Shown here: in pieces, positions 6,391-60,540 of the stretch
Position numbering within the stretch: position 1 is the first letter of the stretch
Layout: every line of letters starts with the position of its first letter
Sequence record: OZ035799.1
Length of the DNA stretch: 64,000 nt
Source of the DNA: Justusliebigvirus alia
Direction: 5' to 3' (one strand)
Position numbers and translations under genes: made by a program
The notes under the pieces: model-generated
The model's input: only the letters and a program-made list of their open reading frames with translations
Databases searched by the model: none
Told to the model about the DNA's origin: nothing

Positions 6391-6412
6391 AAGGAGCCGT
6401 TAGGCTCCTTAT
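6391..6412 (-). terminator. stem-loop (GGAGCC-GTTA-GGCTCC)
   Basis: Perfect inverted repeat between SSB-like gene and methyltransferase gene. Confidence 0.4.
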
Positions 6413-6432
6413 ATTCACACAATACTTAACTA

Positions 6433-7380: not shown

Positions 7381-7396
7381 AAATTCTCCTCTATAA

Positions 7397-7795: not shown

Positions 7796-7838
7796 TCAAG
7801 TCCTCATAATAACACATAATTATAATGTTTGTCAACAC

Positions 7839-8432: not shown

Positions 8433-8440
8433 ATTTTCTC

Positions 8441-9037: not shown

Positions 9038-9064
9038 AAAAACTCCTTTAAAATCAAAGAGTTG

Positions 9065-12130: not shown

Positions 12131-12141
12131 ATTTTTTCTCC

Positions 12142-23982: not shown

Positions 23983-24960
23983 TTAAGCAACAGTCTGGTC
24001 TTCTTTTTCAGGGAAGATTAAACTTGCAATAACACCCAGCCCAAGAGTACCTAACACAATATACATACTGATCGTCGGATCAATGTGTGCTGGCAGGAAA
24101 CTCACTTTTGCGTGCAGAGTTTCTGCAAACGGGTGATACATCAGTTTTACACCCACAAATACCAGGACTACGATAACTGCTTTCTCCAGATGAACCAAAT
24201 ACTTCAGTGCAACACTAAGAACAAAGAACAGAGCACGTAAACCTAAGATTGCACAGAGCATCGAAGAGAACACCAGCAGAGGTTCTTGTGTCACCGCAAT
24301 TACTGCTGGAACAGAGTCTACTGCAAAGATTACGTCAACCATTTCCATTACAAACACACAAACCAGAGCCGGAGTTGCTACACGAACACCATTTTTGATT
24401 GTGAAGAACTTCTCACCATCCATCTGATCAGATACAGGGAACAGCTTACGAACAATGCGAGTAGCCCAGTGTTTAGAGTAATCAACTTCTGCATCATTAT
24501 CCCCAGCGAATACCATTTTAGCCGCACAGAAAAGGATGACAGCACCGAAGAAGATATTAACATACCAGCCCAAACTCAACAAGTAAGTGCCTACTGCTAC
24601 AAACACACCTCGGAAGACAATCGCACCTGCAATACCCCAAAGTAGAATTTTGTGCTGCAAGTGTGTGCTTTTAATACCAAAACTTGCGAAGACTGCCACA
24701 AATACTACTAAGTTATCTACAGAAAGAGATTTCTCCAACACATACCCACTCAAGAACAAGCTCGCAAAATCAGCACCGTGTTGGAAGTATACAAAACCAT
24801 AGTAGGCTAATGATACCCCAATCCAGAAAATTGACCAGCCAATTGCAGATTTAAATGAAATTTCTTTGTTTTCTCTGTGTCCAAAGAAGTCAATACAAAT
24901 CGACAAGACTAAAATACCCACTAAAACAACCACATCAATAATTGGGAAACCCAGTTGCAT
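23983..24960 (-). CDS. terC: TerC-family integral membrane protein
   Basis: 325 aa, multi-pass hydrophobic; signature EKSLSVDNLVVF; AGAGGAGAA RBS. Confidence 0.75.
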   Translation of the reverse strand: MQLGFPIIDVVVLVGILVLSICIDFFGHRENKEISFKSAIGWSIFWIGVSLAYYGFVYFQHGADFASLFLSGYVLEKSLSVDNLVVFVAVFASFGIKSTHLQHKILLWGIAGAIVFRGVFVAVGTYLLSLGWYVNIFFGAVILFCAAKMVFAGDNDAEVDYSKHWATRIVRKLFPVSDQMDGEKFFTIKNGVRVATPALVCVFVMEMVDVIFAVDSVPAVIAVTQEPLLVFSSMLCAILGLRALFFVLSVALKYLVHLEKAVIVVLVFVGVKLMYHPFAETLHAKVSFLPAHIDPTISMYIVLGTLGLGVIASLIFPEKEDQTVA

Positions 24961-25037
24961 TCTTTTCTCCTCTTTAATGCGGAGGACAATCCTCCGCTCT
25001 ATGTCTTATACTATAAACTGTTTTTAAAGAAAGTCAA

Positions 25038-47974: not shown

Positions 47975-48180
47975 AAAATTATTTAAAGTTTTTACAGATT
48001 TTTGGGTACAAATTTAGAAAATGAAAAGTTCAAGTTTGGTCAAAATTATTTAAAGTTTTTGTACGTATTTCTATCCAGATTTTGAAAATGAAAACTTCAA
48101 TTTTTTAAAAATTCCCCAGTTTATTTAAAGTTTTTTTGCCTTTTTCCGTAGAAAAATCAAAAATGAAAAGTTCAATTTCG
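47975..48180. repeat. three copies of ~55-bp direct repeat (AAAATTATTTAAAGTTTTT...GAAAATGAAAAGTTCAA)
   Basis: Both sub-motifs recur three times in same order within 200 bp of AT-rich non-coding DNA. Confidence 0.6.
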
Positions 48181-48198
48181 TGTTTTTATGGGTGTGCG

Positions 48199-48312
48199 TA
48201 TGATAATCATTTTCATTTGTAAATGAGAATCATTATCATTTAAGTATGTAAGTGATAATCATTCTCACTAAGAGAATGAGAATCATTAGCAAATGAGAAT
48301 TTTTCTCATTTA
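48199..48312. promoter_or_regulatory. cluster of five Fur-box-like palindromes
   Basis: TGATAATCATTTTC, TGAGAATCATTATC, TGATAATCATTCTC, GAGAATCATTAGC and perfect palindrome AAATGAGAA-TTT-TTCTCATTT; up to 13/14 match to GATAATGATAATCATTATC core. Confidence 0.45.
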
Positions 48313-48573
48313 GAGAATAACGCGCAGGGGTGGTGTTTGTCTCGCGCTCCCGTGTCCCCTCGCCATACAATAAGAATAGCATAACCAACAACAAAAGCAA
48401 GCGATTATTTTTATCTTTACATTTCTTTACAAATTTATTTTAGACGAGCTACCGGCGATCAACCTTCCAACCAGTAGTGCCCTGGTATGTTAGCCCCGCC
48501 TTTACGCCGTGGGGGTGGCGTTTCCTCTTCTGTATGTAAAACAGTATAAGCCCGATCCCTGGGCTTGTCAAGA

Positions 48574-48840
48574 TTATTTTTTGTTTTCTTGCCAGGATAG
48601 GACACCTAACCAAAAATACATGTCGCCCCGCGCCCCTGGCGGGATCTTGCTTTCCCCGCCGCCACTGCAAGCCCATAGATAACCATTTACGAACGTATCA
48701 AAGTGATCTATCTCTTCCACCTTATGATTGCCCAGGTTGAGAACGGTTTCAACCTTTAAGCCCGTTGCGCTTGCTACCTGGTGCACCGTGCCGCCTTGCC
48801 AGCCCAATGAGTGCATGAGATGTAAAGGAGTATTTGTCAT
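48574..48840 (-). CDS. hypothetical protein encoded in GC-rich island
   Basis: 88-aa ORF (MTNTPLHLMHSLGWQGG...) with AAAGGG RBS; surrounding ~600 bp clearly more GC-rich than rest of window. Confidence 0.3.
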   Translation of the reverse strand: MTNTPLHLMHSLGWQGGTVHQVASATGLKVETVLNLGNHKVEEIDHFDTFVNGYLWACSGGGESKIPPGARGDMYFWLGVLSWQENKK

Positions 48841-49105
48841 GGTATCGCCCTTTCTTTGATGTGCGCCCTGGTTGGCGCGGTAGAAAGATAATAGCCGTTT
48901 CCTTTATAGATAGCAAGCAAAAAAGAAATGAAAAAAGATTAAAAAAATGGTTGACGTTCCTCACCTGGTAGCGTAGTATTCATCTTGTCGAGGGGGCGAG
49001 GCACAACGACAATAAACAAAAGGAGGGCGCAATGTAGGACGGGCAAAGGTGAGGATCTCCACAATCCACCGTCACAATAACATTACTTATAAAAGGTTGA
49101 TAACG

Positions 49106-49201
49106 ATGATCAAGAAAGAAAACAGCTTGACGGTTGGAACGATTAACGCTATCATTCTTGCCGTTCCATTTTGGGTTGTAGTAGCGGTTATTATTTTTTA
49201 A
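49106..49201 (+). CDS. possible small membrane peptide (31 aa)
   Basis: ATG with weak AAGG; hydrophobic; not in track. Confidence 0.2.
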   Translation: MIKKENSLTVGTINAIILAVPFWVVVAVIIF

Positions 49202-49209
49202 AAATATTC

Positions 49210-49267
49210 TTGACAACGTTTTTTAATCTGATAAGATGTATCACATAGGGCGGCAATAGTGCCGCTC
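49210..49267 (+). promoter_or_regulatory. promoter-hairpin cassette (TTGACA ... CACATAGGGCGGCAATAGTGCCGCTC)
   Basis: sigma70 -35, then conserved CACATAGGG element with stem GCGGCA/TGCCGC, ~22 nt before ATG 49290. Confidence 0.55.
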
Positions 49268-49289
49268 ATAACAGAAGAGAGAAATAATC

Positions 49290-49562
49290 ATGGCATCATA
49301 TAGCGCATCAATGATTGTAATGGGTATCACTGGTAAACCTATGCGCGGTGGCGGATCTTTCGCTAACATCAATATTGATGGACGTTTATCCCTGGACGCA
49401 GCGATCACAGTGGCACGGGAAACGTTTAAAAAAGAATGTAATTTCAATAAACAAGATTATCTCGGCTTCGTTATTGAAAAAACCGCGCGCTTTGTTGATT
49501 ATAAAAGCCCGAAAATGATCGACACTACACTAAAGGCGCAAGATGTAGCTTTTTTGCTTTAA
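49290..49562 (+). CDS. hypothetical small early-type protein
   Basis: 90-aa track ORF behind cassette. Confidence 0.6.
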   Translation: MASYSASMIVMGITGKPMRGGGSFANINIDGRLSLDAAITVARETFKKECNFNKQDYLGFVIEKTARFVDYKSPKMIDTTLKAQDVAFLL

Positions 49563-49565
49563 GGC

Positions 49566-49625
49566 TTGACACTGAAAAATAATTTGGTAATATATACCAC
49601 ATAAGGCGGGAAATGGTTTCCCGCC
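49566..49625 (+). promoter_or_regulatory. promoter-hairpin cassette (TTGACA ... GGCGGGAAATGGTTTCCCGCC)
   Basis: Perfect 9-bp inverted repeat with TGG loop downstream of -35/-10. Confidence 0.6.
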
Positions 49626-49647
49626 AAATCAAAGAAAGGGTAACACA

Positions 49648-50010
49648 ATGAGCAAGCAAATCAATACTATCATGTTAAACCTGGTATCTTTCCGTGATGA
49701 CGTGAAAAATCTTTCGCGTGATGCAGTGGATGCACGGATCGAAAGCTATCGCACACAGATCGCAACATTACCGTTAAAACGTGATCAACATGCCGCTAAT
49801 ATGATGCTTGATGCTATGATTAAAAAGATGATTCAGTGTGATCTTACCCTGGCTTATGAATATGCTGGCGATCTCTTTGTAACGTATAATAAGCCCGTTC
49901 CAGGTATGAGCACCACGGAAGAATTGCATGCCTTAAATCTGCGACAAGATGCATGGGATAACATGCGCCGTGTTATGGTATGGGCCGAAAGCGGTAAAAT
50001 TTACGAATAA
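49648..50010 (+). CDS. hypothetical protein
   Basis: 120-aa track ORF; AAAGGG RBS. Confidence 0.6.
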   Translation: MSKQINTIMLNLVSFRDDVKNLSRDAVDARIESYRTQIATLPLKRDQHAANMMLDAMIKKMIQCDLTLAYEYAGDLFVTYNKPVPGMSTTEELHALNLRQDAWDNMRRVMVWAESGKIYE

Positions 50011-50016
50011 AAACGG

Positions 50017-50070
50017 TTGACATTGCACGAAAACCTGATAAGCTATCTTAAAGCGGGAATAGTTCCCGCT
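50017..50070 (+). promoter_or_regulatory. promoter-hairpin cassette (TTGACA ... AGCGGGAATAGTTCCCGCT)
   Basis: -35 hexamer plus 8-bp stem variant of the conserved hairpin. Confidence 0.55.
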
Positions 50071-50088
50071 TACATAGGATAAAACTTT

Positions 50089-50235
50089 ATGAAACAATAT
50101 GTAATGAGTATTCACACCAAAAACGGCGCTACTGTTACGACTCCGGCACGGTTTGCACTTGTAAACCGTTGCAAGAGACTAAAACGAGAGCTAAAAAATA
50201 ACCGTGCAACCGGTTTTAAACGCTGGGGAGGATAA
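50089..50235 (+). CDS. small basic protein (48 aa)
   Basis: Not in track; directly behind cassette; stop overlaps RBS of next gene. Confidence 0.45.
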   Translation: MKQYVMSIHTKNGATVTTPARFALVNRCKRLKRELKNNRATGFKRWGG

Positions 50236-50237
50236 TC

Positions 50238-50498
50238 TTGTTTTTTCTAAAAGTTTTTGATAATGTGATCGCTTTTGAACATGCTACGACGTTCGACCTG
50301 GCGAGATACGCTATCAGGTTTAAAGATAATGTTTATCCCCGTGCTGGCGGCGGTTACACTATTTTTAATCATCGTAATGCGCAACTAACAGATATAACGA
50401 ATCCAGATCCTGGAGTGTATCGCATAGGCTGGCTACCGTCAAAAGACGCTGCAAGCATGTTTAAGGTATGTAAACTACTAACAGAAGAGGCGAACTAA
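50238..50498 (+). CDS. hypothetical protein
   Basis: 86 aa; TTG start 5 nt after GGGGAGGA. Confidence 0.5.
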   Translation: MFFLKVFDNVIAFEHATTFDLARYAIRFKDNVYPRAGGGYTIFNHRNAQLTDITNPDPGVYRIGWLPSKDAASMFKVCKLLTEEAN

Positions 50499-50499
50499 C

Positions 50500-51054
50500 A
50501 TGGGGCGTGAATATGTGATCCAGTCCTGGGTAAAGCATGATGCTAATGATCCGCGCATAATACCAGATGACATGATCGATCACATGGTAGGGTATAGCGG
50601 GGAGCAGATAGGAAATCGAGCGGCAAAGAGCAACGGCAACACCAGGACGCGATCCGTTCGCCCTGGATGGCTGGCGAATGGTAACGCTGACATTGCAAGC
50701 GCCGCAGATCCAAGCGATGACGCTAAAAATAATCCCTTATACAGCATTGATCCGGCTTTTAAGGTGTTGGAAGAGTATCCCGCTAAATTAGCCGCACTAG
50801 ATAAGGCATACGAAGAAAAGCGCATGGCATGGACTGTATACAACACCGCTAAAATGGTGCTAGATGCAAAATTGATTAAAGCCCAGGAGAAGATCAATAA
50901 ACTTGTTGCAGTAGCGCAAGAGGAAGACCAGGGCGACCAGGAGGAAGAGGAAGAAATCATGCCTACCCTGGAAGAGGAAGAGATCCAGCCATACATGCCG
51001 ACGGAAGAGGAAAAAAGACAAGCCTTAAAAAATTATGAAAATTGCATTGTGTAA
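50500..51054 (+). CDS. hypothetical protein with acidic C-terminal tail
   Basis: 184-aa track ORF; C-terminus EEDQGDQEEEEE. Confidence 0.55.
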   Translation: MGREYVIQSWVKHDANDPRIIPDDMIDHMVGYSGEQIGNRAAKSNGNTRTRSVRPGWLANGNADIASAADPSDDAKNNPLYSIDPAFKVLEEYPAKLAALDKAYEEKRMAWTVYNTAKMVLDAKLIKAQEKINKLVAVAQEEDQGDQEEEEEIMPTLEEEEIQPYMPTEEEKRQALKNYENCIV

Positions 51055-51057
51055 GGC

Positions 51058-51113
51058 TTGACATATGCAAACAAGCCCCGTAATATATACCACATAGAGC
51101 GGGGCAACGCCTC
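51058..51113 (+). promoter_or_regulatory. degenerate promoter-hairpin cassette
   Basis: TTGACA, TAATAT, then CACATAGAGCGGGGCAACGCC (imperfect copy of conserved element). Confidence 0.4.
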
Positions 51114-51132
51114 AAAGGTGAAATAAAAATCA

Positions 51133-51161
51133 CTTGACACCTGAAATCAGTAAGCTATAAT
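51133..51161 (+). promoter_or_regulatory. consensus sigma70 promoter (TTGACA-N17-TATAAT)
   Basis: Perfect -35 and -10 hexamers with 17-bp spacer, ~37 nt upstream of ATG 51199. Confidence 0.65.
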
Positions 51162-51198
51162 GCTTATATAGATTGAAACATTACTAAGGAATAAAAGC

Positions 51199-51378
51199 AT
51201 GGCTATTATTGCAAAGACTGAGATCGTAGGTTTAGATTCTATCATCCTGGCATATGAGGAAGCTATAGAAATGTATGTGGTTTCCTATGGTGATTATATC
51301 CGTGAATATAAATTTATTGATCTAGCTTTTGAATGTTATATTCACCAGGTCAATAAAGCCTATGATGATTATCGTTAA
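51199..51378 (+). CDS. small hypothetical protein (59 aa)
   Basis: Not in track; AAGGAATAA RBS; downstream of consensus promoter. Confidence 0.45.
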   Translation: MAIIAKTEIVGLDSIILAYEEAIEMYVVSYGDYIREYKFIDLAFECYIHQVNKAYDDYR

Positions 51379-51397
51379 AAGTTTTAGTCTTGTGCTA

Positions 51398-51426
51398 TTG
51401 ACAACGAACGATAGTACAAGCATAAT
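51398..51426 (+). promoter_or_regulatory. sigma70 promoter (TTGACA-N17-CATAAT)
   Basis: Hexamers upstream of ATG 51474; no hairpin in this copy. Confidence 0.5.
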
Positions 51427-51473
51427 AACTTTTATCGGGAATACTCCTAACTAATCAAAAGAGATTAAAGACT

Positions 51474-51839
51474 ATGGCTAAAAATATCAATGTTTCTGCT
51501 TATGCTACCCTGGCTAACACTGCTAAAATTGAACTATCCAGCATTGAAGCGGTACATATTAGCGCCCGTCGCTGGTTTCAAAAGTCTTATGGTAATACTT
51601 ATTTCTCTTTGATGGTTGACGTTGAGATCGGCGGTAAACTGATTGAAGTCGTTAACGTTCCGTTTCATTATGGTTATGGTGATCATTTTGATACCGTTGC
51701 CCTGGAAGAGTTTAGCAAGGTTATCAACCTGGAAGGTAAAGACTTTTCAAATTATGCTTACCTTTCCCGTTTTTGCCGTGACAATGGGATCGCTGTATAC
51801 AGTCATGCAAGCGATGTTAAACGTAAAAAAGATTTATAA
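51474..51839 (+). CDS. hypothetical protein
   Basis: 121-aa track ORF. Confidence 0.6.
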   Translation: MAKNINVSAYATLANTAKIELSSIEAVHISARRWFQKSYGNTYFSLMVDVEIGGKLIEVVNVPFHYGYGDHFDTVALEEFSKVINLEGKDFSNYAYLSRFCRDNGIAVYSHASDVKRKKDL

Positions 51840-51845
51840 AAAGCA

Positions 51846-51903
51846 TTGACAGCACGAATAAAAAGCATATAATACTTATATCGAGAGCGGGAATAGTTCC
51901 CGC
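51846..51903 (+). promoter_or_regulatory. promoter-hairpin cassette (TTGACA-N16-TATAAT ... GCGGGAATAGTTCCCGC)
   Basis: Near-consensus promoter followed by conserved stem-loop. Confidence 0.6.
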
Positions 51904-51927
51904 CTCACTGAAAAAGAGATTAACATC

Positions 51928-52167
51928 ATGGCTAAATCTAAAATGTACAACGGTCACAAAAACAAAACTCATTGGAATGTAAGCCTTTGGATTAATAACG
52001 ATGAATCGTTATACTTATACGCTGTAGGTTTAATAAATGAGTGTGGTAATAAAGATAAAGCGGCGGATCTAATGTGCTACAGATTAAAACAGGACGGAAT
52101 CACTCATACACCTGATGGTTTCAAGTATAGTAAAACTGCAATCCGTGCCGCTATGGTTGGAATGTAA
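51928..52167 (+). CDS. hypothetical protein
   Basis: 79-aa track ORF. Confidence 0.6.
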   Translation: MAKSKMYNGHKNKTHWNVSLWINNDESLYLYAVGLINECGNKDKAADLMCYRLKQDGITHTPDGFKYSKTAIRAAMVGM

Positions 52168-52180
52168 AGGAGACATAAAA

Positions 52181-52261
52181 ATGAAACATCGTTCGACCTA
52201 TCTCACAAAACGTTTTAGCTTAGATCATAAATTGGGCTATTACGGAAGAAATAGAAAATAA
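52181..52261 (+). CDS. possible micro-ORF (26 aa)
   Basis: ATG after AAAGGAGAC; ends at next promoter. Confidence 0.25.
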   Translation: MKHRSTYLTKRFSLDHKLGYYGRNRK

Positions 52262-52262
52262 T

Positions 52263-52322
52263 TTGACACTGTTTAAAATTCTGGTATAGTTTATCACATA
52301 GGGCGGGAAATGGTTTCCCGCC
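52263..52322 (+). promoter_or_regulatory. promoter-hairpin cassette (TTGACA-N16-TATAGT ... GGCGGGAAATGGTTTCCCGCC)
   Basis: Same 21-nt hairpin as at 49605, 53182, 57503. Confidence 0.6.
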
Positions 52323-52344
52323 AAATCAAAGAAAGGTTATCATT

Positions 52345-52572
52345 ATGGCTATCGTTATTGTTCGCGTATCCGGTACGGTTGGAATCTCTCAGGTAGTAGC
52401 AGTTATCACAGAGAAGAAAGGGGATGATCTTCACTCCTCCTTGAATAGCTGGGCGGTCGCTAACTTTGGGCAATGGTCGAGCGTTGAGTACATCGAAGCC
52501 TACCAGGTGCCAACGATTAGCCTAACCGATCTGAATGTTGATCGCTTGTTGTGCCTGGATCAATTAAATTAA
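52345..52572 (+). CDS. hypothetical protein
   Basis: 75-aa track ORF. Confidence 0.6.
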   Translation: MAIVIVRVSGTVGISQVVAVITEKKGDDLHSSLNSWAVANFGQWSSVEYIEAYQVPTISLTDLNVDRLLCLDQLN

Positions 52573-52580
52573 AAATAATA

Positions 52581-52638
52581 TTGACAAGATAACTAAAATC
52601 AGTAAAATGTAATGCATAGGGCGGCAATAGTGCCGCTC
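52581..52638 (+). promoter_or_regulatory. promoter-hairpin cassette (TTGACA ... GGGCGGCAATAGTGCCGCTC)
   Basis: Same hairpin variant as at 49248 and 56429. Confidence 0.55.
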
Positions 52639-52659
52639 CTAGTGAGAGAGATTATCAAA

Positions 52660-52875
52660 ATGACTAATATCCGCACCTTGTTAAAAAATGCAAAGCAAGT
52701 TTTATTTTCAGATGACGAATATTTTAATAAAGATATTACAGGCGTGAAAAATTTAAAAGACGTGAAGGATGTTATCGGTATCCGTGGATCTTTACGTAAA
52801 GGTGACATATACGGTAACAAGGTGCAATATAAACTGTCAAAAGATTATGATTTTACTTTGACATTTATTTCATAA
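52660..52875 (+). CDS. hypothetical protein
   Basis: Track ORF 52612 starts inside cassette; ATG at 52660 follows cassette. Confidence 0.55.
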   Translation: MTNIRTLLKNAKQVLFSDDEYFNKDITGVKNLKDVKDVIGIRGSLRKGDIYGNKVQYKLSKDYDFTLTFIS

Positions 52876-52881
52876 AACCGC

Positions 52882-52942
52882 TTGCAATACTGCAAAAATA
52901 AAGTAAACTGTACTCATCAAGGCGGTGGAATAGCCCACCGCC
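52882..52942 (+). promoter_or_regulatory. promoter-like TTGCAA plus hairpin GGCGGTGG-AATAG-CCACCGCC
   Basis: 8-bp perfect stem with AATAG loop as in other cassettes. Confidence 0.45.
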
Positions 52943-52965
52943 TAACAAAGAGAAGAGGAAACATC

Positions 52966-53136
52966 ATGATCACTTTCGCTACCCGTGAAGCCGCTCGCAA
53001 CGTTGCACGTAAAGTTAACGCCGCCAACCTGGGCGCTACGCTTAAAGCCCCGGTAAAAGATGAATCAGGTAAATGGATCTTCCCTGGTCTGCGTCACGCT
53101 GATAAGCTGGGAACGTTAACGCTAAAAAATAAATAA
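52966..53136 (+). CDS. small hypothetical protein (56 aa)
   Basis: ATG after AGAGAAGAGGAAA; track ORF extends upstream through hairpin. Confidence 0.5.
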   Translation: MITFATREAARNVARKVNAANLGATLKAPVKDESGKWIFPGLRHADKLGTLTLKNK

Positions 53137-53143
53137 AATCCGC

Positions 53144-53202
53144 TTGACAGTAGCATCATTTATAAGTAAAGTAACAACAACGGCGGGAAATGGTTTCCCG
53201 CC
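53144..53202 (+). promoter_or_regulatory. promoter-hairpin cassette (TTGACA ... GGCGGGAAATGGTTTCCCGCC)
   Basis: -35 hexamer and conserved 21-nt hairpin. Confidence 0.6.
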
Positions 53203-53222
53203 ATCAATAAAGAGATAAGATC

Positions 53223-53582
53223 ATGAAATCAGTAAAAGCAATTAAAACTTACATTGTGTCGGCTATTTCTTTTGATGGTACTACAACCGAAAAAGAAAAG
53301 ATCACCGAACTGATGCGCCGTTTTAACTCTGAATACTGGTATCCCGATAATCAAAAACGTTACAATTATAACGTGATCAAGGCGATAGCCTCATGGTTAC
53401 AAGGTTTACCGTCAGAAATCAATATTGCTTTTGATTATAACGAGATCGATCACTTGTTAATTGAATGGAAGTACATAAAAGAAACAAGCAAAGAAACAAC
53501 CGTTACCCGTGAGCGGGAAAATTATTGGTTATATATTGCAAGCATGATCGTAATCCTGGCAAAACAGCATAACGTGGCGTAA
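53223..53582 (+). CDS. hypothetical protein
   Basis: 119-aa track ORF. Confidence 0.6.
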   Translation: MKSVKAIKTYIVSAISFDGTTTEKEKITELMRRFNSEYWYPDNQKRYNYNVIKAIASWLQGLPSEINIAFDYNEIDHLLIEWKYIKETSKETTVTRERENYWLYIASMIVILAKQHNVA

Positions 53583-53597
53583 TTAAGAGGAAGAAAC

Positions 53598-53735
53598 ATG
53601 AACGCATCACAGCAGATCGAAAAATTCAACCGCAGCAAGGCGCGTAAAGATTGGAACGAAGAGATCACCAAAAAAGGCGACAAGCGGAACAAAACAAAGA
53701 GAGATCGCAGCACAAAAAGATACTGGAACGAATAA
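53598..53735 (+). CDS. small highly basic protein (45 aa)
   Basis: Not in track; ATG after AAGAGGAAGAAA; followed by terminator. Confidence 0.4.
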   Translation: MNASQQIEKFNRSKARKDWNEEITKKGDKRNKTKRDRSTKRYWNE

Positions 53736-53742
53736 CAAAAAA

Positions 53743-53763
53743 GGGCGCAATAAGCGCCCTTTT
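53743..53763 (+). terminator. rho-independent terminator (GGGCGC-AATAA-GCGCCC + T-run)
   Basis: Same terminator sequence recurs at ~59124. Confidence 0.55.
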
Positions 53764-53853
53764 AGCTTATATAGAGGCTTGTTACCCATAGGCAATGGTA
53801 ATGCCAGGATAAGCCTATAAACCACGTTAGACAGCTTTACAGGAGCTTTAAAA

Positions 53854-54036
53854 ATGAAATTAGAAGAAATAAGCAAGGCACTAGCCCAGGGGCAAAGGTT
53901 AAACGCCCGTTATCGTGATCAATATGGCTTCATAACCAGCGGCGTGATCCTGGGGATTGAAGGCAATAAGATTTTTATTGACACGTTGAAAAACGTTGTA
54001 TATAGTGACAATATAATCTCAATAAAACATATATGA
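53854..54036 (+). CDS. hypothetical protein
   Basis: 60-aa track ORF; AGGAG RBS. Confidence 0.5.
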   Translation: MKLEEISKALAQGQRLNARYRDQYGFITSGVILGIEGNKIFIDTLKNVVYSDNIISIKHI

Positions 54037-54044
54037 GGCAAGAA

Positions 54045-54446
54045 ATGAAAAAATTATTGATCGCTGGTTTAATCTCTTTTGGCATGGTTGGAACATCTAG
54101 CGCGGCGATATCCTCCACAGTAGCAGAATTAAGCGCCGTTGATGCAATGGAAAACGTCATGCTTATTAATAATGCGATCCCCGATGAAATCATGGAGGAT
54201 TCACACATGATCGCTTATGGTGCTGTTACACAACTAACGGCAAAAATAGATAAATCTATTGTTAATGGCTTAAATGAAGATGTACCATGTGAAATTATTA
54301 CCAGTGTGCTCACTACTCAAAATTTTACGCCGTGGTTAAAAAGTATTCAAAAAGTACACAGTACAGCCGCAGATCGTAGCAATGAAAAACTAGTGTCAGC
54401 ACTTGCAACGTATACCCTAGCAAAATGTACCGAGATAAAAGATTGA
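54045..54446 (+). CDS. secreted protein with signal peptide
   Basis: MKKLLIAGLISFGMVGTSSAA signal peptide; track start 54033 is 4 codons upstream. Confidence 0.5.
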   Translation: MKKLLIAGLISFGMVGTSSAAISSTVAELSAVDAMENVMLINNAIPDEIMEDSHMIAYGAVTQLTAKIDKSIVNGLNEDVPCEIITSVLTTQNFTPWLKSIQKVHSTAADRSNEKLVSALATYTLAKCTEIKD

Positions 54447-54493
54447 CAATATAGAAAGCACGTTATAAGATACACACAACAAAGGAGAACTAC

Positions 54494-54796
54494 ATGAACG
54501 GCATAGCTAAAACGTTTTTTCTTTTTTCTGGTGTAAATGATCCATCAATAAAAGTCGATAGTGTAAAAGAAAACAATACTATCACAGCTAAATTGTCTCA
54601 AGATGAAACAAATAACGTGCTAATCATTAATCTTAAAGAAATAACAAAAGGTTATTACACTATTGCTTACCATGCGATCTATAATGCTGGTACTAGTGAG
54701 GAAGTGCAAACAAGCAACAACGAAAGCGCGGCGCTACCTGGTGATCTGGTGCTGGGCGTTATCAGTTTAATTGTCAATGATTTTTTTAAGGAGTAA
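54494..54796 (+). CDS. hypothetical protein
   Basis: 100-aa track ORF; AAAGGAGAA RBS. Confidence 0.55.
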   Translation: MNGIAKTFFLFSGVNDPSIKVDSVKENNTITAKLSQDETNNVLIINLKEITKGYYTIAYHAIYNAGTSEEVQTSNNESAALPGDLVLGVISLIVNDFFKE

Positions 54797-54800
54797 AACC

Positions 54801-54896
54801 ATGCCCTATTTACATTTATTTTTCGGTATCTTATTGACAGGATCTTTTTTCTTCTGTATGCTTGTTTCTATTGTAAACCACGTTTTAAGACATTAA
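54801..54896 (+). CDS. possible hydrophobic peptide (31 aa)
   Basis: ATG 4 nt after AAGGAG; not in track. Confidence 0.3.
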   Translation: MPYLHLFFGILLTGSFFFCMLVSIVNHVLRH

Positions 54897-54905
54897 GGAA
54901 ACAGC

Positions 54906-55025
54906 ATGAAAATTATTCCCGTACAGTATAGCGTAATAAATCCAGCATATGAGGAAGGAAGGAAAACAAGCATGGCTTTATGTTGTATTGCTACTATAGC
55001 CATGTTATTATATATTGTGTTTTAA
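54906..55025 (+). CDS. possible small membrane protein (39 aa)
   Basis: ATG after AAGGAAACAGC; hydrophobic C-terminus. Confidence 0.3.
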   Translation: MKIIPVQYSVINPAYEEGRKTSMALCCIATIAMLLYIVF

Positions 55026-55054
55026 TAGGTTTTATAGTTGTACGCTTTAAAGGC

Positions 55055-55085
55055 TTGACAATTTTTTGTTATGCTTTAAAATATA
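55055..55085 (+). promoter_or_regulatory. putative sigma70 promoter (TTGACA)
   Basis: -35 hexamer upstream of ATG 55126; no clear hairpin. Confidence 0.35.
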
Positions 55086-55125
55086 TCTTGAAAACGGCAA
55101 AGGCCGCAAACAAAAGGGTAAAATT

Positions 55126-55449
55126 ATGAAATCTGTGATCGGTGTTTATTTGGATAACTCTGATTTTTTCTATCATCGTGCGCGTTTCCTTGATGCGATT
55201 GAAATGATAGAATCAGGCTTTAAAGAGTATCGCCTTGCACATGATGACCTGGAAGCATTACAGGGCAATAGTGTTTTTACATTGCAAGCTAAAGCACTAT
55301 GCAAAAGCCGGATCGACATTGCAAGCAAAAAGATAGAACGCGGCATGTCCTGGTTGCGCACCGCAGAAATCAACATGGGGCAATGGTACGGCGAAAACTT
55401 AGAAAATAAACACACTTTTGTAAATGTAGAAAATATTAAAGATTATTGA
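55126..55449 (+). CDS. hypothetical protein
   Basis: Track ORF 55066 begins at TTG inside promoter; ATG at 55126 after AAAGGG. Confidence 0.5.
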   Translation: MKSVIGVYLDNSDFFYHRARFLDAIEMIESGFKEYRLAHDDLEALQGNSVFTLQAKALCKSRIDIASKKIERGMSWLRTAEINMGQWYGENLENKHTFVNVENIKDY

Positions 55450-55511
55450 TTGACAGCACACCTGATAAGTAATATATTGTATCTCATAGAGCGGGGAAAT
55501 GGTTTCCCCGC
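55450..55511 (+). promoter_or_regulatory. promoter-hairpin cassette (TTGACA ... GCGGGGAAATGGTTTCCCCGC)
   Basis: -35 directly after upstream stop; conserved hairpin variant. Confidence 0.6.
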
Positions 55512-55531
55512 CTTAACAGAAGAGATAAGAT

Positions 55532-55816
55532 ATGAAGATCACAAAAGCACTTTCCAACTATGCAGCACGTCGCGGCTTATGCTTAACCGTTGAAAACTTA
55601 GGGAAAGAAGATTTTTTGTGCTTTTGGGAGCTTGAGAATGATAATGAGTGGATCTTCTCTTATTCTATCTGCAAAGATCAAAATGGTTGCTTGTTAACAT
55701 GGCGAGGTAATATCTATTTACCGGAAGAAATAAAACAAGAATTACCAGGCACGATCATGACTGAGAAACAGCTTAAGGAAGTGATCAATTTTGTAGGGCA
55801 AAACATTAAAAAATAA
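55532..55816 (+). CDS. hypothetical protein
   Basis: 94-aa track ORF. Confidence 0.6.
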   Translation: MKITKALSNYAARRGLCLTVENLGKEDFLCFWELENDNEWIFSYSICKDQNGCLLTWRGNIYLPEEIKQELPGTIMTEKQLKEVINFVGQNIKK

Positions 55817-55817
55817 T

Positions 55818-55877
55818 TTGACAGTAGGCAAACAACGTAGTAAAGTTTATCACATAGGGCGGGAAATGGTTTCCCGC
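55818..55877 (+). promoter_or_regulatory. promoter-hairpin cassette (TTGACA-N17-TAAAGT ... GGGCGGGAAATGGTTTCCCGC)
   Basis: Conserved TATCACATAGGGCGGG element. Confidence 0.6.
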
Positions 55878-55900
55878 TCACAACAAAAGAGAAACAAATC

Positions 55901-56071
55901 ATGATCCCGACTATGTTTTACGTATCGCGCAAAGGTCACAATATTTTTTGGTCTGAAGATTTAAATGAAGCCATGACGTTTGCCCGTGATCGTGTTGCTA
56001 TCGGTGGCGTTAATATTACCGTAACCGATGAAAACGGCATTGAATACTACAACGGCGACGATGAAGAGTAA
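55901..56071 (+). CDS. small hypothetical protein (56 aa)
   Basis: Not in track; ATG ~23 nt after hairpin. Confidence 0.45.
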   Translation: MIPTMFYVSRKGHNIFWSEDLNEAMTFARDRVAIGGVNITVTDENGIEYYNGDDEE

Positions 56072-56078
56072 TTAATAA

Positions 56079-56100
56079 GGCGGGGGGAGTATTCCCCGCC
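56079..56100 (+). promoter_or_regulatory. stand-alone hairpin (GGCGGGGGGAGTATTCCCCGCC)
   Basis: Variant of conserved stem-loop without upstream -35, 20 nt before ATG 56120. Confidence 0.4.
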
Positions 56101-56119
56101 ATCAATAAAGAGATAAATC

Positions 56120-56389
56120 ATGAAAATATCATTGGACGTTGCAATCAAGGCCATCGAATCCGGTTACACCCTGGTAAAAGATGATAAGGCTAAAATAGTG
56201 CATCATGTTAACAAGGAAACAGGCGAAAGCATGATCACATATAAAGCCGCCTACTTTCTCCAATCAGTAGCAGATCCGCGCGTACAGCGCCAGGTCACGG
56301 CGGCTATTGCTAAAAAATTATGTGCTTTACAGGGCACAAGTTTTAACGAGATCCCGCCGTGTTTTGACTGGTCGAGCTTGAAAAAATAG
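56120..56389 (+). CDS. hypothetical protein
   Basis: 89-aa track ORF. Confidence 0.6.
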   Translation: MKISLDVAIKAIESGYTLVKDDKAKIVHHVNKETGESMITYKAAYFLQSVADPRVQRQVTAAIAKKLCALQGTSFNEIPPCFDWSSLKK

Positions 56390-56390
56390 T

Positions 56391-56448
56391 TTGACAAAAA
56401 TTATAAATCGGGTAGAATGTATTTCGTAGGGCGGCAATAGTGCCGCTC
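56391..56448 (+). promoter_or_regulatory. promoter-hairpin cassette (TTGACA-N16-TAGAAT ... GGGCGGCAATAGTGCCGCTC)
   Basis: Good -10 and conserved hairpin. Confidence 0.6.
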
Positions 56449-56469
56449 GCAACTAAAAGAGAAATCATC

Positions 56470-56664
56470 ATGGCGCTTAAAAAACTAACAAGCAATACTC
56501 GTTGGGATGAAATCGACGGGGAAGTATACATTTTCGCCCGTAAACCAGGTGATCAAAAATGGTCAAAGGCTTTTACTTGTCACCCTGCAACAATAGATCT
56601 AATAAAAAGTAAAGGTTTACGTGAAGCAGTAGCGAGAAGTTTACTGATTCCTTGTAAAAAATAG
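56470..56664 (+). CDS. hypothetical protein
   Basis: Track ORF 56440 starts within hairpin; ATG at 56470 after AAAGAGAAA. Confidence 0.55.
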   Translation: MALKKLTSNTRWDEIDGEVYIFARKPGDQKWSKAFTCHPATIDLIKSKGLREAVARSLLIPCKK

Positions 56665-56665
56665 T

Positions 56666-56727
56666 TTGACAATATGCGGTTATCTGGTAAAGTGTACCAC
56701 GTAGGGCGGGGCAATAAGGCAACGCCC
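56666..56727 (+). promoter_or_regulatory. promoter plus degenerate hairpin (TTGACA ... GGGCGGGGCAATAAGGCAACGCCC)
   Basis: -35 hexamer; imperfect copy of conserved element. Confidence 0.45.
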
Positions 56728-56745
56728 ACTAATGAGGGTAAAATC

Positions 56746-56850
56746 ATGTTAGAGAAAATTTTCACGGTTGTAATAGTGGGCCTGGCGTTATCGGTTGGAG
56801 TGATTGCAACTATGGCTAACATGATCCTATCTTCCCACGGTATTGGATAA
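56746..56850 (+). CDS. small membrane peptide (34 aa)
   Basis: Not in track; ATG after GAGGG; one hydrophobic helix. Confidence 0.35.
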   Translation: MLEKIFTVVIVGLALSVGVIATMANMILSSHGIG

Positions 56851-56860
56851 GGTGAATCAA

Positions 56861-57076
56861 ATGATCACGAATAAGACAGGTAAAACGGAATTTTTACGCG
56901 GCTTGCAAATAGGTAAACCTGAGATCTGGCATTGCACTAAAAGACCACGTGACGAAATGAAAGATTTCACCGCTACTTTACAACGTGTTAAAATATCTAT
57001 CACACAGAAAAAAGCCTTGTTAGTAGTAGAAAACGAGATCCCGCAAACCATTATTATTGTCGAGCGTACAGCATGA
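56861..57076 (+). CDS. hypothetical protein
   Basis: Track ORF 56843 starts at TTG; ATG at 56861 after AAGGTG. Confidence 0.5.
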   Translation: MITNKTGKTEFLRGLQIGKPEIWHCTKRPRDEMKDFTATLQRVKISITQKKALLVVENEIPQTIIIVERTA

Positions 57077-57459
57077 AAACTGAAATCATTAACGAAATGA
57101 TCAACGGCTATAAAGAAGCCTTTATTTTTGCCGAACCAGCGACGGATCACAATGGGGAATATATTGAGAATCTAGACGATTATGATTTTTCTCCTAGCGC
57201 CCTGAAACGTATTACCAGCGATGTGACCGCCTTTTGTAGTGCCAATGTTGCCGCTATCTCTGAGGCAATGAGCGACGGCGCAACAGCAAACCAGATCGGG
57301 AATGACTTACATTTCACCCGTAACGGTCACGGCGTAGGCTTTTGGGATCGCCCTGAAATATACACTACTAACACCGCCAACCGCCTAACAAATGCAGCTA
57401 AATTAATGCCATCGGTGCATGCTTACATTGGTGAAGATAATTTGATTTATATTGAATAA
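57073..57459 (+). CDS. hypothetical protein
   Basis: 128-aa track ORF; ATGA overlap with upstream gene. Confidence 0.55.
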   Translation: MKTEIINEMINGYKEAFIFAEPATDHNGEYIENLDDYDFSPSALKRITSDVTAFCSANVAAISEAMSDGATANQIGNDLHFTRNGHGVGFWDRPEIYTTNTANRLTNAAKLMPSVHAYIGEDNLIYIE

Positions 57460-57464
57460 AAGTA

Positions 57465-57523
57465 TTGACACCGATCCCCAGTATGGTATTATTTACCACG
57501 TAGGCGGGAAATGGTTTCCCGCC
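57465..57523 (+). promoter_or_regulatory. promoter-hairpin cassette (TTGACA ... GGCGGGAAATGGTTTCCCGCC)
   Basis: Conserved 21-nt hairpin. Confidence 0.6.
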
Positions 57524-57546
57524 AGGTAATCAAAAAGGTAAATACT

Positions 57547-57936
57547 ATGCGCAACCTGGTTTCTGTTTCTAACGTTGAAAAATTCCAATCTTTACAGGGT
57601 ATCGTTAACAACGTAGCGCCTTTTTTAGTCAATGGCTTGATTGCAAAGATGAAGAATAAACATCATGCCGCATGGTCTGCTTACTGCTTTGACAATGATG
57701 AAAAAGCGGCTGAAATGATGTTAAATATGCTGTTAGACAGTGTAGAATCATCTTTACCGGAAAACATCGCAGAAGAGATCACCTATCGTTATAATATGGC
57801 GATCACTTACCAGGAGGTTGCGCAATTTAATATGATGGATGATGACGAACAACAGGATCAGGAAATTTTCTGGGAGTATGCTGATCGCCAATCGGCTTTT
57901 GATGAAAAATTAGCGATGTATTATAATGAATATTAA
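57547..57936 (+). CDS. hypothetical protein
   Basis: Track ORF 57511 starts within hairpin; ATG at 57547 after AAAAAGG. Confidence 0.55.
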   Translation: MRNLVSVSNVEKFQSLQGIVNNVAPFLVNGLIAKMKNKHHAAWSAYCFDNDEKAAEMMLNMLLDSVESSLPENIAEEITYRYNMAITYQEVAQFNMMDDDEQQDQEIFWEYADRQSAFDEKLAMYYNEY

Positions 57937-57952
57937 TACACGGTAAAAGAAA

Positions 57953-57976
57953 GGGGCGCACTAAGCGCCCTTTTTT
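57953..57976 (+). terminator. rho-independent terminator (GGGGCGC-ACTAA-GCGCCCC + T6)
   Basis: GC stem plus TTTTTT after stop at 57936. Confidence 0.6.
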
Positions 57977-58322
57977 GTATTCTTTTTTCACAATGGAAGC
58001 GACACGTAAAGAATAGGCGTAAAGGTGGCGTAAAACCATCTAAAACCGACTGTAACCGCTTAAACAAGGTAGGAATGATTAATCACCTTACCAGGATGAA
58101 AAAGCCGTTATAAAGCTATCTAGAGCGTTTAAAGCACATAGGAAATAATTTGCTTTTTATCTTGCCTTTTATTCTGCTTTTGATTATTATTATGGAACGG
58201 GCGGCACCTGGGGACAGGGGGAAGATAATCACCGGACGACCCCGCTATATATTGATAGCTAACATCTATCAAACAACAAAACATCAAAGAAATAAACTAT
58301 CAAATCTTTACAATCTCATCTA

Positions 58323-58351
58323 TTGACCGATAAATCATAGCAGTTTAATAT
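58323..58351 (+). promoter_or_regulatory. sigma70 promoter (TTGACC-N17-TAATAT)
   Basis: ~50 nt upstream of ATG 58400, after ~440-bp non-coding stretch. Confidence 0.45.
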
Positions 58352-58399
58352 TGTTTTTAGAGGGTAGAACATACCCAAAACGAAAACAGGAAAAAGAAA

Positions 58400-58636
58400 A
58401 TGAAAGAAGTCATGATCCTCAAAAAATCACCTATTTTACGTGGTGGCTTTATCGCTTACTCTGATGATCTGTTAATTGCAACGGTTGCAAAAATACTAAA
58501 ATCAGAAGAGGATAGTAAAAACGGCGTTTATCGTATCTGTTTCACCCGTGGGAAATTGCAAGGCAAGATCGCCTATGCTTTTGATTTACAAGATGTAAAT
58601 GATAAAATCTGCGCTGTTATTGATTATGCAAAATAA
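58400..58636 (+). CDS. hypothetical protein
   Basis: 78-aa track ORF. Confidence 0.55.
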   Translation: MKEVMILKKSPILRGGFIAYSDDLLIATVAKILKSEEDSKNGVYRICFTRGKLQGKIAYAFDLQDVNDKICAVIDYAK

Positions 58637-58648
58637 TTAACTTTCTTA

Positions 58649-58700
58649 TTGACACCGGATCACGCTTACATTATTATTTATCACGTAGGGCAAATCATTT
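58649..58700 (+). promoter_or_regulatory. promoter plus degenerate conserved element (TTGACA ... TATCACGTAGGGCAAATC)
   Basis: -35 hexamer; CACGTAGGGC retains 5-prime half of conserved element without stem. Confidence 0.4.
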
Positions 58701-58723
58701 TAAACGGTAAACGAGGAAACACC

Positions 58724-59107
58724 ATGAGCAATATCATCAACCTGGCAGCGACTGTAAACGGTAAAGACTTTAACGGCGCTGTAGACCGTGATCCTATGTG
58801 GTGCTTATCAGTGTTTAAAGGCGACCTGGTTGAAGTTAGAACAACCGAAGGGTATAGCGATGATTATAAATGCGAGATCCATTTACATAACTGGTACACG
58901 GGTAAAACTTATGCGCTGAATCACGCGTTTATCGGGAAAATTGAATATCGCGAAATGATCGACGAAGAAACGGGGCAAGATTTTAGCGATTATGTTTATA
59001 TTCGTTCCGAAACATTAGCCGAACGGTTGATCGAGAAAATGAAAGCAAAAAATAAAATTAATTTATCTCATTGGATTGATATAACAAACGATCCAGCTTA
59101 TCAGTAA
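58724..59107 (+). CDS. hypothetical protein
   Basis: Track ORF 58649 begins in promoter; ATG at 58724 after ACGAGGAAA. Confidence 0.55.
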   Translation: MSNIINLAATVNGKDFNGAVDRDPMWCLSVFKGDLVEVRTTEGYSDDYKCEIHLHNWYTGKTYALNHAFIGKIEYREMIDEETGQDFSDYVYIRSETLAERLIEKMKAKNKINLSHWIDITNDPAYQ

Positions 59108-59123
59108 ATAACATTCCATACAA

Positions 59124-59149
59124 GGGCGCAATAAGCGCCCTTTCTTTTT
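59124..59149 (+). terminator. rho-independent terminator (GGGCGC-AATAA-GCGCCC + T-run)
   Basis: Identical stem-loop to 53743; ends the small-gene array. Confidence 0.6.
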
Positions 59150-59354
59150 ACCTCAATAAAGATGATAGCTTTTACCTATCAAAAACGTTCACCGAAAAAA
59201 GTGAATAGATCGCGGTATCGAGCTAATCAAGGAGCAGATGAACAACCATACCATGAAGATCATAAGGCGCTTACAACGTGTTTTAGACCGCTTATTTTTA
59301 ATTTCTTCATGCAACTATCTGGCAAAAACAGCCTTTTTCTTGTCTTTCCTCTTA

Positions 59355-59430
59355 AATGATAATCATTCTTATTTATAGCTGATTATTTATGCAATAAACT
59401 GCATAATGCAATAATGATAATCATTCTTAA
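59355..59430. promoter_or_regulatory. two Fur-box-like motifs (AATGATAATCATTCTTA; AATGATAATCATTCTTAA)
   Basis: 12-13/14 match to Fur-box core, in AT-rich non-coding DNA. Confidence 0.4.
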
Positions 59431-59796
59431 CTTATGACCATCTAACCTATAAAATAATAAGTTATCTAACTAAATTAAAACTAATTATCTTACTTTTATT
59501 TATAACTTACTGTTACTATCTCATTGATAACCTTATATTAAACAACAATAACTAATATAAATCATTACTAAGCTAAATATAATCTATCTAACCTTTAAAA
59601 CTATAACTATAATCTATTGAATTATTGCACAAAGTAACTATTAAATCGTTAGTAACATTACTAAATAATTAATATCCTATTTATTTATGATCTAATCTTT
59701 ACCTTACTATCTATTACCTAAATAATCATTTTATACCGTAATCATTTCATACAATAATTATAACAAGAAATATAATTAGCAAGCGTATCATTAGCA

Positions 59797-59954
59797 GCCT
59801 ATGCCGGACACATAGGCGGCTAATAATAACGCAACTACACACCCCACATAATAACCATCACCGATAGTTATTATTTGTGCTTATGTAGCTTGCAACAACT
59901 GCAAGCGCAACAATATACATGGTATATTGTATTCCCTTACATTGTTGCGGTGCG
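59797..59954. repeat. nested inverted repeats (GCCTATG-N7-CATAGGC; ACAATATAC-ATG-GTATATTGT; GCGCAACAAT...ATTGTTGCG)
   Basis: Perfect palindromes read directly from sequence. Confidence 0.55.
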
Positions 59955-59990
59955 TTATTATTAGCTAATGTTTAGAACATTGGCTATAAT

Positions 59991-60063
59991 ATAAGCTATC
60001 CAATAATATAAGCTATCCAATAATAATAAGCTATACAATAATAATAAGCTATACAATAATAAA
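59991..60063. repeat. four tandem 17-18-bp direct repeats (ATAAGCTATCCAATAAT x2, AATAAGCTATACAATAAT x2), iteron-like
   Basis: Head-to-tail repeats in AT-rich intergenic DNA. Confidence 0.6.
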
Positions 60064-60227
60064 CATCGTGAATAATGATGCTGATGATCATAATGCGCCA
60101 CCTTCCAGGGCGGCGCTATGTGAACACAAAGAAATCTTTCTTGTCAAGAAAAATATTAACACTATTGCGCAAAATTATTTATATATGAATAGATGGTTTT
60201 TCATACTATTGCCCCTATAACATACCT

Positions 60228-60284
60228 CATTTGTTGCAATGTACCTTCCTATTTGTTGAGTATAGTTATAGCCTATTTGTTGAG
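60228..60284. repeat. three copies of (C)TATTTGTTGAG-type motif
   Basis: CATTTGTTGC, CTATTTGTTGAG, CTATTTGTTGAG spaced ~20 bp apart. Confidence 0.45.
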
Positions 60285-60353
60285 CCTACTTTCTTAAAAG
60301 CGCAATAAAGTAGAAATATCTTGATTTTTAGTCGGTTTTATAGTACAGAAAGT

Positions 60354-60377
60354 ATGCAAATGATAATCATTATCAGC
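60354..60377. promoter_or_regulatory. Fur-box-like motif (AAATGATAATCATTATCAG)
   Basis: Contains TGATAATCATTATC, 14/14 to Fur-box core. Confidence 0.45.
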
Positions 60378-60540
60378 TATCTTCCACGGGTAGCACTATT
60401 TCACGCCAGATCATTTCATTTGGCAAGGTGTATATAGATGTTTAGACTTGCCAAGCCATTGATTTACTTAGAATTTATCTGTTTTGTTGTGAGTAGTACC
60501 TTTCTTGCTCAGAAAATAATCAAAAGTCTTATAAGTCATT

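Follow-up and report, generated by a model that had tools for sequence, protein, structure and literature searches.

The small-gene region at positions 49210–59149 of a 64,000-nucleotide (nt) stretch of DNA from the phage Justusliebigvirus alia (sequence record OZ035799.1; the whole stretch is referred to here as the window) is organised around a repeated unit of about 80 nt, in which a promoter is followed by a GC-rich hairpin, an A-rich leader and a start codon. The feature is real, non-random and conserved. Beyond what an earlier note on this DNA had described, the whole unit is a repeated cassette of the promoter-early stem-loop (PeSL) kind, and a site of gene gain, loss and exchange. This PeSL-type cassette stands in a different phage lineage, and the consistent placement of its stem-loop in the 5' untranslated region points to a role at the level of the mRNA. 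The explanation favoured here, which is considered probable but with real room for doubt, is that of a hyperplastic early-gene region of portable cassettes, analogous to the PeSL system, where the 5' hairpin would protect or insulate the mRNA and the units would offer homology for recombination. It builds on computed features of the DNA, namely the anatomy of the units, the conservation of pairing, positional constraints, the lack of terminator features, and breakpoints that fall inside the cassettes.

The window contains 28 exact matches to TTGACA-N16/17-TANNNT, where dinucleotide shuffles lead one to expect 2.9 ± 1.6; of the 28, the + strand carries 19 in the interval 49210–58677. Three more array promoters are near-consensus, at 51398 (CATAAT), 52882 (TTGCAA), and 58323 (TTGACC). 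The earlier note had proposed about 18 sigma-70 promoters, each with its stem-loop; the 19 exact sites, far above chance, bear out the first part of this proposal, but several promoters lack the hairpin. A strong hairpin is found behind 13 of 21 array promoters, those at 49210, 49566, 50017, 51846, 52263, 52581, 52882, 53144, 55450, 55818, 56391, 56666 (a variant), and 57465, while the hairpin is degenerate at 51058, decayed at 51398 and lost at 58649, where the leader CACGTAGGGC is kept. No hairpin of the cassette type accompanies the array promoters at 51134, 51398, 53978, 54443, and 58649, nor the intragenic promoter site at 54834; promoter 55055 has a weak hairpin only, and promoter 58323 a different, unrelated one. 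The range and the pairing of the two elements also need correction, since the hairpin at 56079–56100 has no promoter and one further copy lies outside the array, on the − strand at 24968–25037. In the complete 148-kb genome, promoter-plus-hairpin units occur only as this single copy and within one block of about 33 small open reading frames (ORFs).

Folded in segments of 42 nt, the strong hairpins reach energies (ΔG) of −14 to −19 kcal/mol, with z-scores of −3 to −5 relative to shuffles. The commonest one, the 22-mer GGGCGGGAAATGGTTTCCCGCC, is present in five copies at one mismatch or less, with none expected. The copies, described before as at least 12 and near-identical, are not all alike but represent about six stem types, with a common GCGG...CCGC base and a variable inner stem. 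Stems comprise 6–10 base pairs and loops 3–6 nt (UGG, UAG, AUAG), and a conserved start region, YYAC(A/G)TAG, lies ahead of the stem. In all 13 cassette hairpins, the 8 nt past the stem include only zero to two T residues. The region's three real terminators constitute a distinct class, in which a GC stem is flanked by an A-tract and a T-tract. In the Pectobacterium phage PcCB7V, several promoters at 5995–9040 hold another conserved leader, GACGGCATAGACAAACGAAAGCAA, and no hairpin, suggesting that conservation of the CATAG start region does not depend on the stem-loop.

Because a MAFFT alignment of the window copies is not structure-aware, a covariance model was built from seven of them. This model retrieved 45 sense-strand copies in six phages—alia, Phapecoctavirus 536P1, Citrobacter phage Tr1, Seunavirus FENT2, Certrevirus PcCB7V, and Vequintavirus JEP1—tallied as five genera (Justusliebigvirus, Phapecoctavirus, Citrobacter phage Tr1, Seunavirus/Certrevirus, and Vequintavirus). 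When pairing was counted over all 64 model matches, antisense ones included and in a model-fitted alignment that leans towards structure, standard pairs occupied 97.3% of the cells and changes on both sides were observed at seven of the nine pairs. None of 500 shuffles reached these values, and slid registers collapse. To judge from these substitutions, the pairing of the hairpin is under selection. Independently of the model, the gene at 55901 is preceded by the stem type GAAATGGTTTC in alia, by CAATAGTG in ESCO8 and muut, and by CGGAATGGTCCA in 536P1, that is, one gene has different hairpin types in different phages, but the hairpin is always present. In 37 distinct copies, the GCGG...CCGC arms stand 8, 9, 10, 11, 12 or 13 nt apart. 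A scan of IMG/VR with the 14-mer ATCACATAGGGCGG gave 113 matches, mostly single and scattered, the query being too short to inform.

The geometry of the unit is equally constrained. The stem begins 8–13 nt past the last base of the −10 box in all 35 promoter-bearing copies, with a mode of 11 (22 of 35), and the end of the hairpin lies 17–25 nt from the start codon in approximately 39 of 44 copies. Ten of the 45 hairpins lack a strong promoter and keep their distance to the ATG; among them, the promoterless hairpin at 56079 has been kept in five relatives (Paula, ESCO8, KKE7M, muut, and 536P1). Because promoterless hairpins maintain this distance, the link of the hairpin to the ribosome-binding site is no weaker than its link to the promoter.

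In the proposed mechanism, the host RNA polymerase would start a few nucleotides ahead of the stem, so that each transcript would open with a stable 5'-proximal hairpin. With a start 6–8 nt past the −10 box, according to standard sigma-70 geometry, the predicted RNA begins A(CA)UAG and would be paired from about +3 to +7 onward; the distance of the stem from the −10 hexamer puts its first base at about +2 to +7. The hairpin would abut the ribosome-binding site, with an unstructured A-rich leader bearing a weak Shine-Dalgarno sequence and then the start codon. Most likely, it would guard the message against 5'-end-dependent decay by RppH and RNase E, and also keep the ribosome-binding site insulated from upstream sequence, including read-through polycistronic RNA. 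We infer the position of the transcription start, the early timing, and the stabilising or insulating effect from this arrangement. Of the roles offered previously, the mRNA 5' hairpin has the best anatomical fit, in terms of stem position, a fixed 17–25 nt to the start codon and compensatory changes, and it is this role that we infer. The leader of T7 gene 10 holds a 5' stem-loop of the stabilising kind. Secondary structure at the 5' end also stabilises Escherichia coli mRNA against RppH and RNase E (PMC3997798), and by analogy the stabilisation of mRNA would be the best-fitting molecular function of the alia hairpins. Like the stabilising stem-loops of ompA and papA (PMC3997798), they combine a stable hairpin a few nucleotides from the predicted 5' end with a ribosome-binding site behind it; unlike them, they have a predicted 5' end, are predicted to hold 3–6 unpaired nt ahead of the stem, and form a multi-copy family instead of a single leader.

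The cassettes are also the points where gene content changes. In comparisons with Paula, ESCO8, KKE7M, and muut, 21 of 24 breakpoints of indels and replacements fall within −20 to +80 of the start of a −35 box, and several junctions show an overlapping repeat of 7–27 nt. Precise cassette-to-cassette deletions have removed 51205–51474 and 52606–52895 in muut, and single-gene insertions are found in ESCO8, KKE7M, and muut. Since the unit of about 80 nt is repeated before almost every gene, it would serve as recombination homology, by which single genes may be deleted, inserted, replaced or horizontally exchanged. The gene at 56470–56664, a 64-amino-acid ORFan, encodes a protein 98% identical to JEP1_119 from Vequintavirus JEP1 (12089–12283), whereas the other genes common to alia and JEP1 are 70–76% identical. 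Its near-identical DNA starts at the hairpin (TAGGGCGGCAATAGTGCCGCTC) and stops in the −35 box of the next cassette (TAGTTTGACAATAT). Due to this difference in identity, the gene points to a recent exchange between subfamilies, with cassette sequences as its borders. A site-specific, integron-like recombination at the hairpin was considered and rejected, as junctions occur in the promoter spacer and in the hairpin as well as in the ribosome-binding site (+4 to +76), a spread that fits homologous exchange better than a site-specific reaction.

Units of this kind are best known from the PeSLs of the T4-like phages RB49/phi1, T4/PST, and KVP40/nt-1 (Arbiol et al. 2010, PMC2839356; Comeau et al. 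2014, PMC4122927). A PeSL consists of a sigma-70 promoter, a GC stem-loop, a Shine-Dalgarno sequence and a start codon, is repeated in ORFan-rich hyperplastic regions, preferentially ahead of ORFans, and mediates modular shuffling; five subclasses have been described, the commonest with the stem-loop in the −35/−10 spacer or over the −10 box, and similar elements in other phages were treated by the same authors as analogues (PMC2839356, PMC4122927). The alia units share with them the repetition of an intergenic unit of about 80–100 nt in a hyperplastic region of small ORFans, the order of sigma-70 consensus promoter, GC-rich stem-loop, Shine-Dalgarno sequence and start codon, and the location within units of the junctions of indels and replacements between close relatives. 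However, the RB49 stems (GGGGATC...GATCCCC), which were checked directly, are unrelated in sequence, and the covariance model gave only weak generic hairpin matches on the RB49 hyperplastic region. In addition, the RB49 stem-loop lies mostly inside the promoter, whereas the alia stem is always 8–13 nt past the −10 box and inside the predicted transcript; by sequence, the alia hairpins have no terminator features; and their lineage is that of the Stephanstirmvirinae and Vequintavirinae, not of the Straboviridae. Because the RB49 stem-loops differ in promoter position and in sequence, the alia units are best regarded as PeSL analogues, not homologues. No prior description of them in phi92, rV5 or Justusliebigvirus phages was found in the searchable literature, which did not extend to the phi92 and PVP-SE1 genome papers.

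Several points weigh against a stabilising hairpin within recombining cassettes. Many other TTGACA promoters of the genome, several of them in the array, have no hairpin, which argues that the hairpin is dispensable for early expression. The literature search found no transcriptomes or transcript mapping for this phage group, and the +1 position is consequently a predicted one. With that start, 6–8 nt past the −10 box, 3–6 unpaired nt are predicted ahead of the stem, which may be enough for RppH and RNase E to engage, so that protection could be partial. The covariance comparison of related phages suggested in the earlier note establishes that pairing is conserved, with two-sided changes at seven of nine pairs, but it does not tell structure in the RNA apart from a palindrome in the DNA: among non-Watson-Crick cells, G.U outnumber A.C by 12 to 7, which is not significant, and a strand-symmetric stem finder used earlier was likewise ambiguous. 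Finally, survivorship alone would give part of the clustering of breakpoints, as gene-sparing indels must end in intergenic DNA; the overlaps at the junctions are the more specific signal.

In the original PeSL reading, the stem-loop is an attenuator or terminator that stops or damps upstream transcription, so that each gene depends mainly on its own promoter. For the RB49/phi1 element, this is backed by the reduction of lacZ expression by its stem-loop, as strong as that caused by rrnB T1 (PMC2839356), and the alia hairpins share with intrinsic (Rho-independent) terminators a strong, GC-rich stem in intergenic DNA; in the annotation of phage Paula many carry a terminator label, if for the most part on the opposite strand. 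Here this reading is unlikely. In the sense direction, the stem is followed by only zero to two T residues in 8 nt instead of a U-tract, differing in this from the genuine terminators of the region, and the hairpin stands between a promoter and that promoter's own gene. Due to its location downstream of the predicted start, efficient termination in the sense direction would abort the cassette's own transcript and is implausible, a conflict that does not arise in RB49, where the stem-loops lie inside promoter DNA, in the −35/−10 spacer or over the −10 box. A DNA operator, bound by a dimeric repressor of the phage or the host for the joint shut-off of all cassette promoters, had been one of the proposals of the earlier note. 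The palindrome, centred at about +15, is placed where repressors commonly block initiation or escape, its outer GGCGG/CCGCC arms are conserved, and the G.U and A.C counts show no significant preference for RNA. Nevertheless, this proposal is now disfavoured as very unlikely, because the spacing of the conserved arms varies from 8 to 13 nt and promoterless copies exist, both hard to reconcile with a rigid dimer operator. Moreover, inner arms are exchanged freely, with the inner stem replaced wholesale and complementarity kept, the fixed distance is that to the ATG and not to the promoter, and other strong promoters of the array have no such site.

The hairpin might instead be an RNA element recognised by a trans-acting factor, for antitermination of the N/boxB type, for translational repression like that of RegA, or for endonuclease targeting in a timed decay of early mRNA. 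Promoter-proximal hairpins of lambda nut (boxB, with boxA) and HK022 put act in antitermination, and like them the alia hairpin is an RNA hairpin shortly past an early phage promoter; the conservation across subfamilies of the stem base (GGCGG/CCGCC), the loops (UGG, UAG, AUAG) and the 5' flank AC(A/G)UAG, together with the fixed distance to the ribosome-binding site, would suit such a factor. This is nonetheless improbable. The alia hairpin is found before almost every gene, not once per operon, its stems are longer and of variable sequence, and stem length (6–10 base pairs) and loop size (3–6 nt) both vary. A boxA/Nus-type signal, prompted by CGCTCACAACA behind some hairpins, was rejected as not enriched: boxA with up to three mismatches gave 77 matches against 63 expected, and only one match (55507) lies directly behind a cassette hairpin. 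The Rfam scan of 48000–60500 at E ≤ 1 returned no family, only three sub-threshold chance hits, and the processing or antitermination signal proposed in the earlier note is a conceivable but improbable reading. Nor was a candidate binding protein identified, the ten array proteins tested all belonging to PHROG families of unknown function. A further alternative, in which the hairpin has no molecular function and hitch-hikes in a repeat spread by recombination and gene conversion, draws on cassette types that have clearly been copied between positions and on the decayed or lost copies at 51058, 51398, and 58649. It can be given little credence, as pairing is kept through two-sided changes at seven of nine pairs and the geometry of the element persists across five genera that align poorly over the rest of their genomes. 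More speculatively, the hairpin and its AC(A/G)TAG flank could together be the recognition site of a phage factor, either a regulator that binds RNA and sets, for all cassette mRNAs together, the timing of their stability or translation, or a single-strand-hairpin recombination site for integron-like mobility of ORFan cassettes between rV5-like and phi92-like phages; this is a long shot.

If the portable-cassette explanation, with its protective 5' hairpin, is true, the PeSL principle—regulatory cassettes that double as recombination modules for accessory genes—would reach the large rV5/phi92 group of therapeutic coliphages, and it would explain the turnover of ORFan-rich early regions, including exchange between subfamilies. 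The uniform, transcript-internal stem-loop also suggests a compact natural expression module, made of promoter, 5' hairpin and ribosome-binding site, that might be reused. A correction to annotation follows as well, as deposited genomes label such hairpins as terminators. In phage Paula (LR865361.1, locus 1892–8396), the deposited annotation gives this name to many cassette hairpins, mostly on the strand opposite to the genes, and these labels are probably an artefact of automatic prediction.

The individual units lie on the + strand. The first cassette, at 49210–49289, begins with TTGACA at 49210, has a −10 box (TAAGAT) ending at 49237, and holds the hairpin GGGCGGCAATAGTGCCGCTC at 49248–49267 (ΔG −14.4, z −4.8) ahead of the ATG at 49290. 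The second (49566–49647) contains a promoter at 49566–49593 and the hairpin GGCGGGAAATGGTTTCCCGCC at 49605–49625, with its ATG at 49648, and the third (50017–50088) combines TTGACA/TAAGCT with AAGCGGGAATAGTTCCCGCTT at 50051–50071 and an ATG at 50089. A remnant at 51058–51133 retains a promoter and the degenerate hairpin GAGCGGGGCAACGCCTC at 51097–51113, and is adjoined, with no ORF between, by the next promoter, a perfect match to the consensus (12/12) in a unit without hairpin (51134–51198, ATG 51199). The two promoters in 51058–51198 are 76 nt apart, and the first, with its degenerate hairpin and no ORF, resembles a scar left by a deleted gene cassette. The unit at 51398–51473 joins TTGACA/CATAAT to the decayed hairpin CGGGAATACTCC (ATG 51474), and the cassette at 51846–51927 joins a perfect promoter to GCGGGAATAGTTCCCGC at 51887–51903 (ATG 51928). 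Four cassettes come next: 52263–52344, whose promoter has a TGn extended −10 (hairpin 52302–52322, ATG 52345); 52581–52659, which again carries GGGCGGCAATAGTGCCGCTC behind its promoter (52619–52638, ATG 52660); 52882–52965, with TTGCAA/TAAACT and AGGCGGTGGAATAGCCCACCGCCT at 52920–52943 (ΔG −18.7, ATG 52966); and 53144–53222, with a promoter and a hairpin at 53182–53202 (ATG 53223).

Three intrinsic terminators split the array into three blocks. The one at 53739–53763 is a true bidirectional terminator with A-tract, GC stem and T-tract, a second true terminator at 57948–57976 ends the second block, and a third at 59122–59142 closes the array. Past the first of them, promoter-bearing cassettes are found at 55450–55531 (GCGGGGAAATGGTTTCCCCGC at 55491–55511, ATG 55532) and 55818–55900 (GGGCGGGAAATGGTTTCCCGCTC at 55857–55879, ATG 55901). 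The promoterless hairpin GGCGGGGGGAGTATTCCCCGCC (56079–56100, in a unit extending to 56119) begins 8 nt past the upstream stop codon and ends 19 nt ahead of the ATG at 56120. The cassette at 56391–56469 holds a promoter and a hairpin at 56429–56448 (ATG 56470), and that at 56666–56745 the variant hairpin GGGCGGGGCAATAAGGCAACGCCC at 56704–56727 (ATG 56746). This variant has a large internal loop and is invariant in six of six Stephanstirmvirinae compared, in a context that has diverged to 94%; the ORF behind it, 56746–56850, encodes a 34-amino-acid hydrophobic peptide. One more cassette is located at 57465–57546 (promoter, hairpin 57503–57523, ATG 57547), and the unit at 58649–58723 has a promoter and the leader CACGTAGGGC, its hairpin lost, before the ATG at 58724. 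The only copy outside the array, at 24968–25037 on the − strand, couples a TTGACT/TATAGT promoter to the hairpin GCGGAGGATTGTCCTCCGC at 24979–24997, and the gene behind it (23983–24960, − strand) encodes a 325-amino-acid multi-pass membrane protein, TerC/Alx-like by eye only.

None of the ten array proteins tested had a Pfam match at the gathering threshold, and no tRNA was found by a tRNA scan. A host origin of the unit is not indicated, as 5,426 complete E. coli genomes hold nothing similar to it. Positions 49210–59149 of the window are 100% identical to 81210–91149 of Justusliebigvirus alia OZ035770.1 and 95–97% identical to other phi92-like myoviruses (Stephanstirmvirinae). An exact-string search left the 64-kb window unmatched in the concatenated OZ035770.1 record, which implies that the two differ slightly in one or more other places of the window. 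Between the terminator at 57948–57976 and the promoter at 58323, a stretch of about 420 bp (57977–58399) holds no convincing ORF and has no Rfam or tRNA match; the rV5 paper likewise describes a large ORF-free stretch in the small-gene region of rV5.

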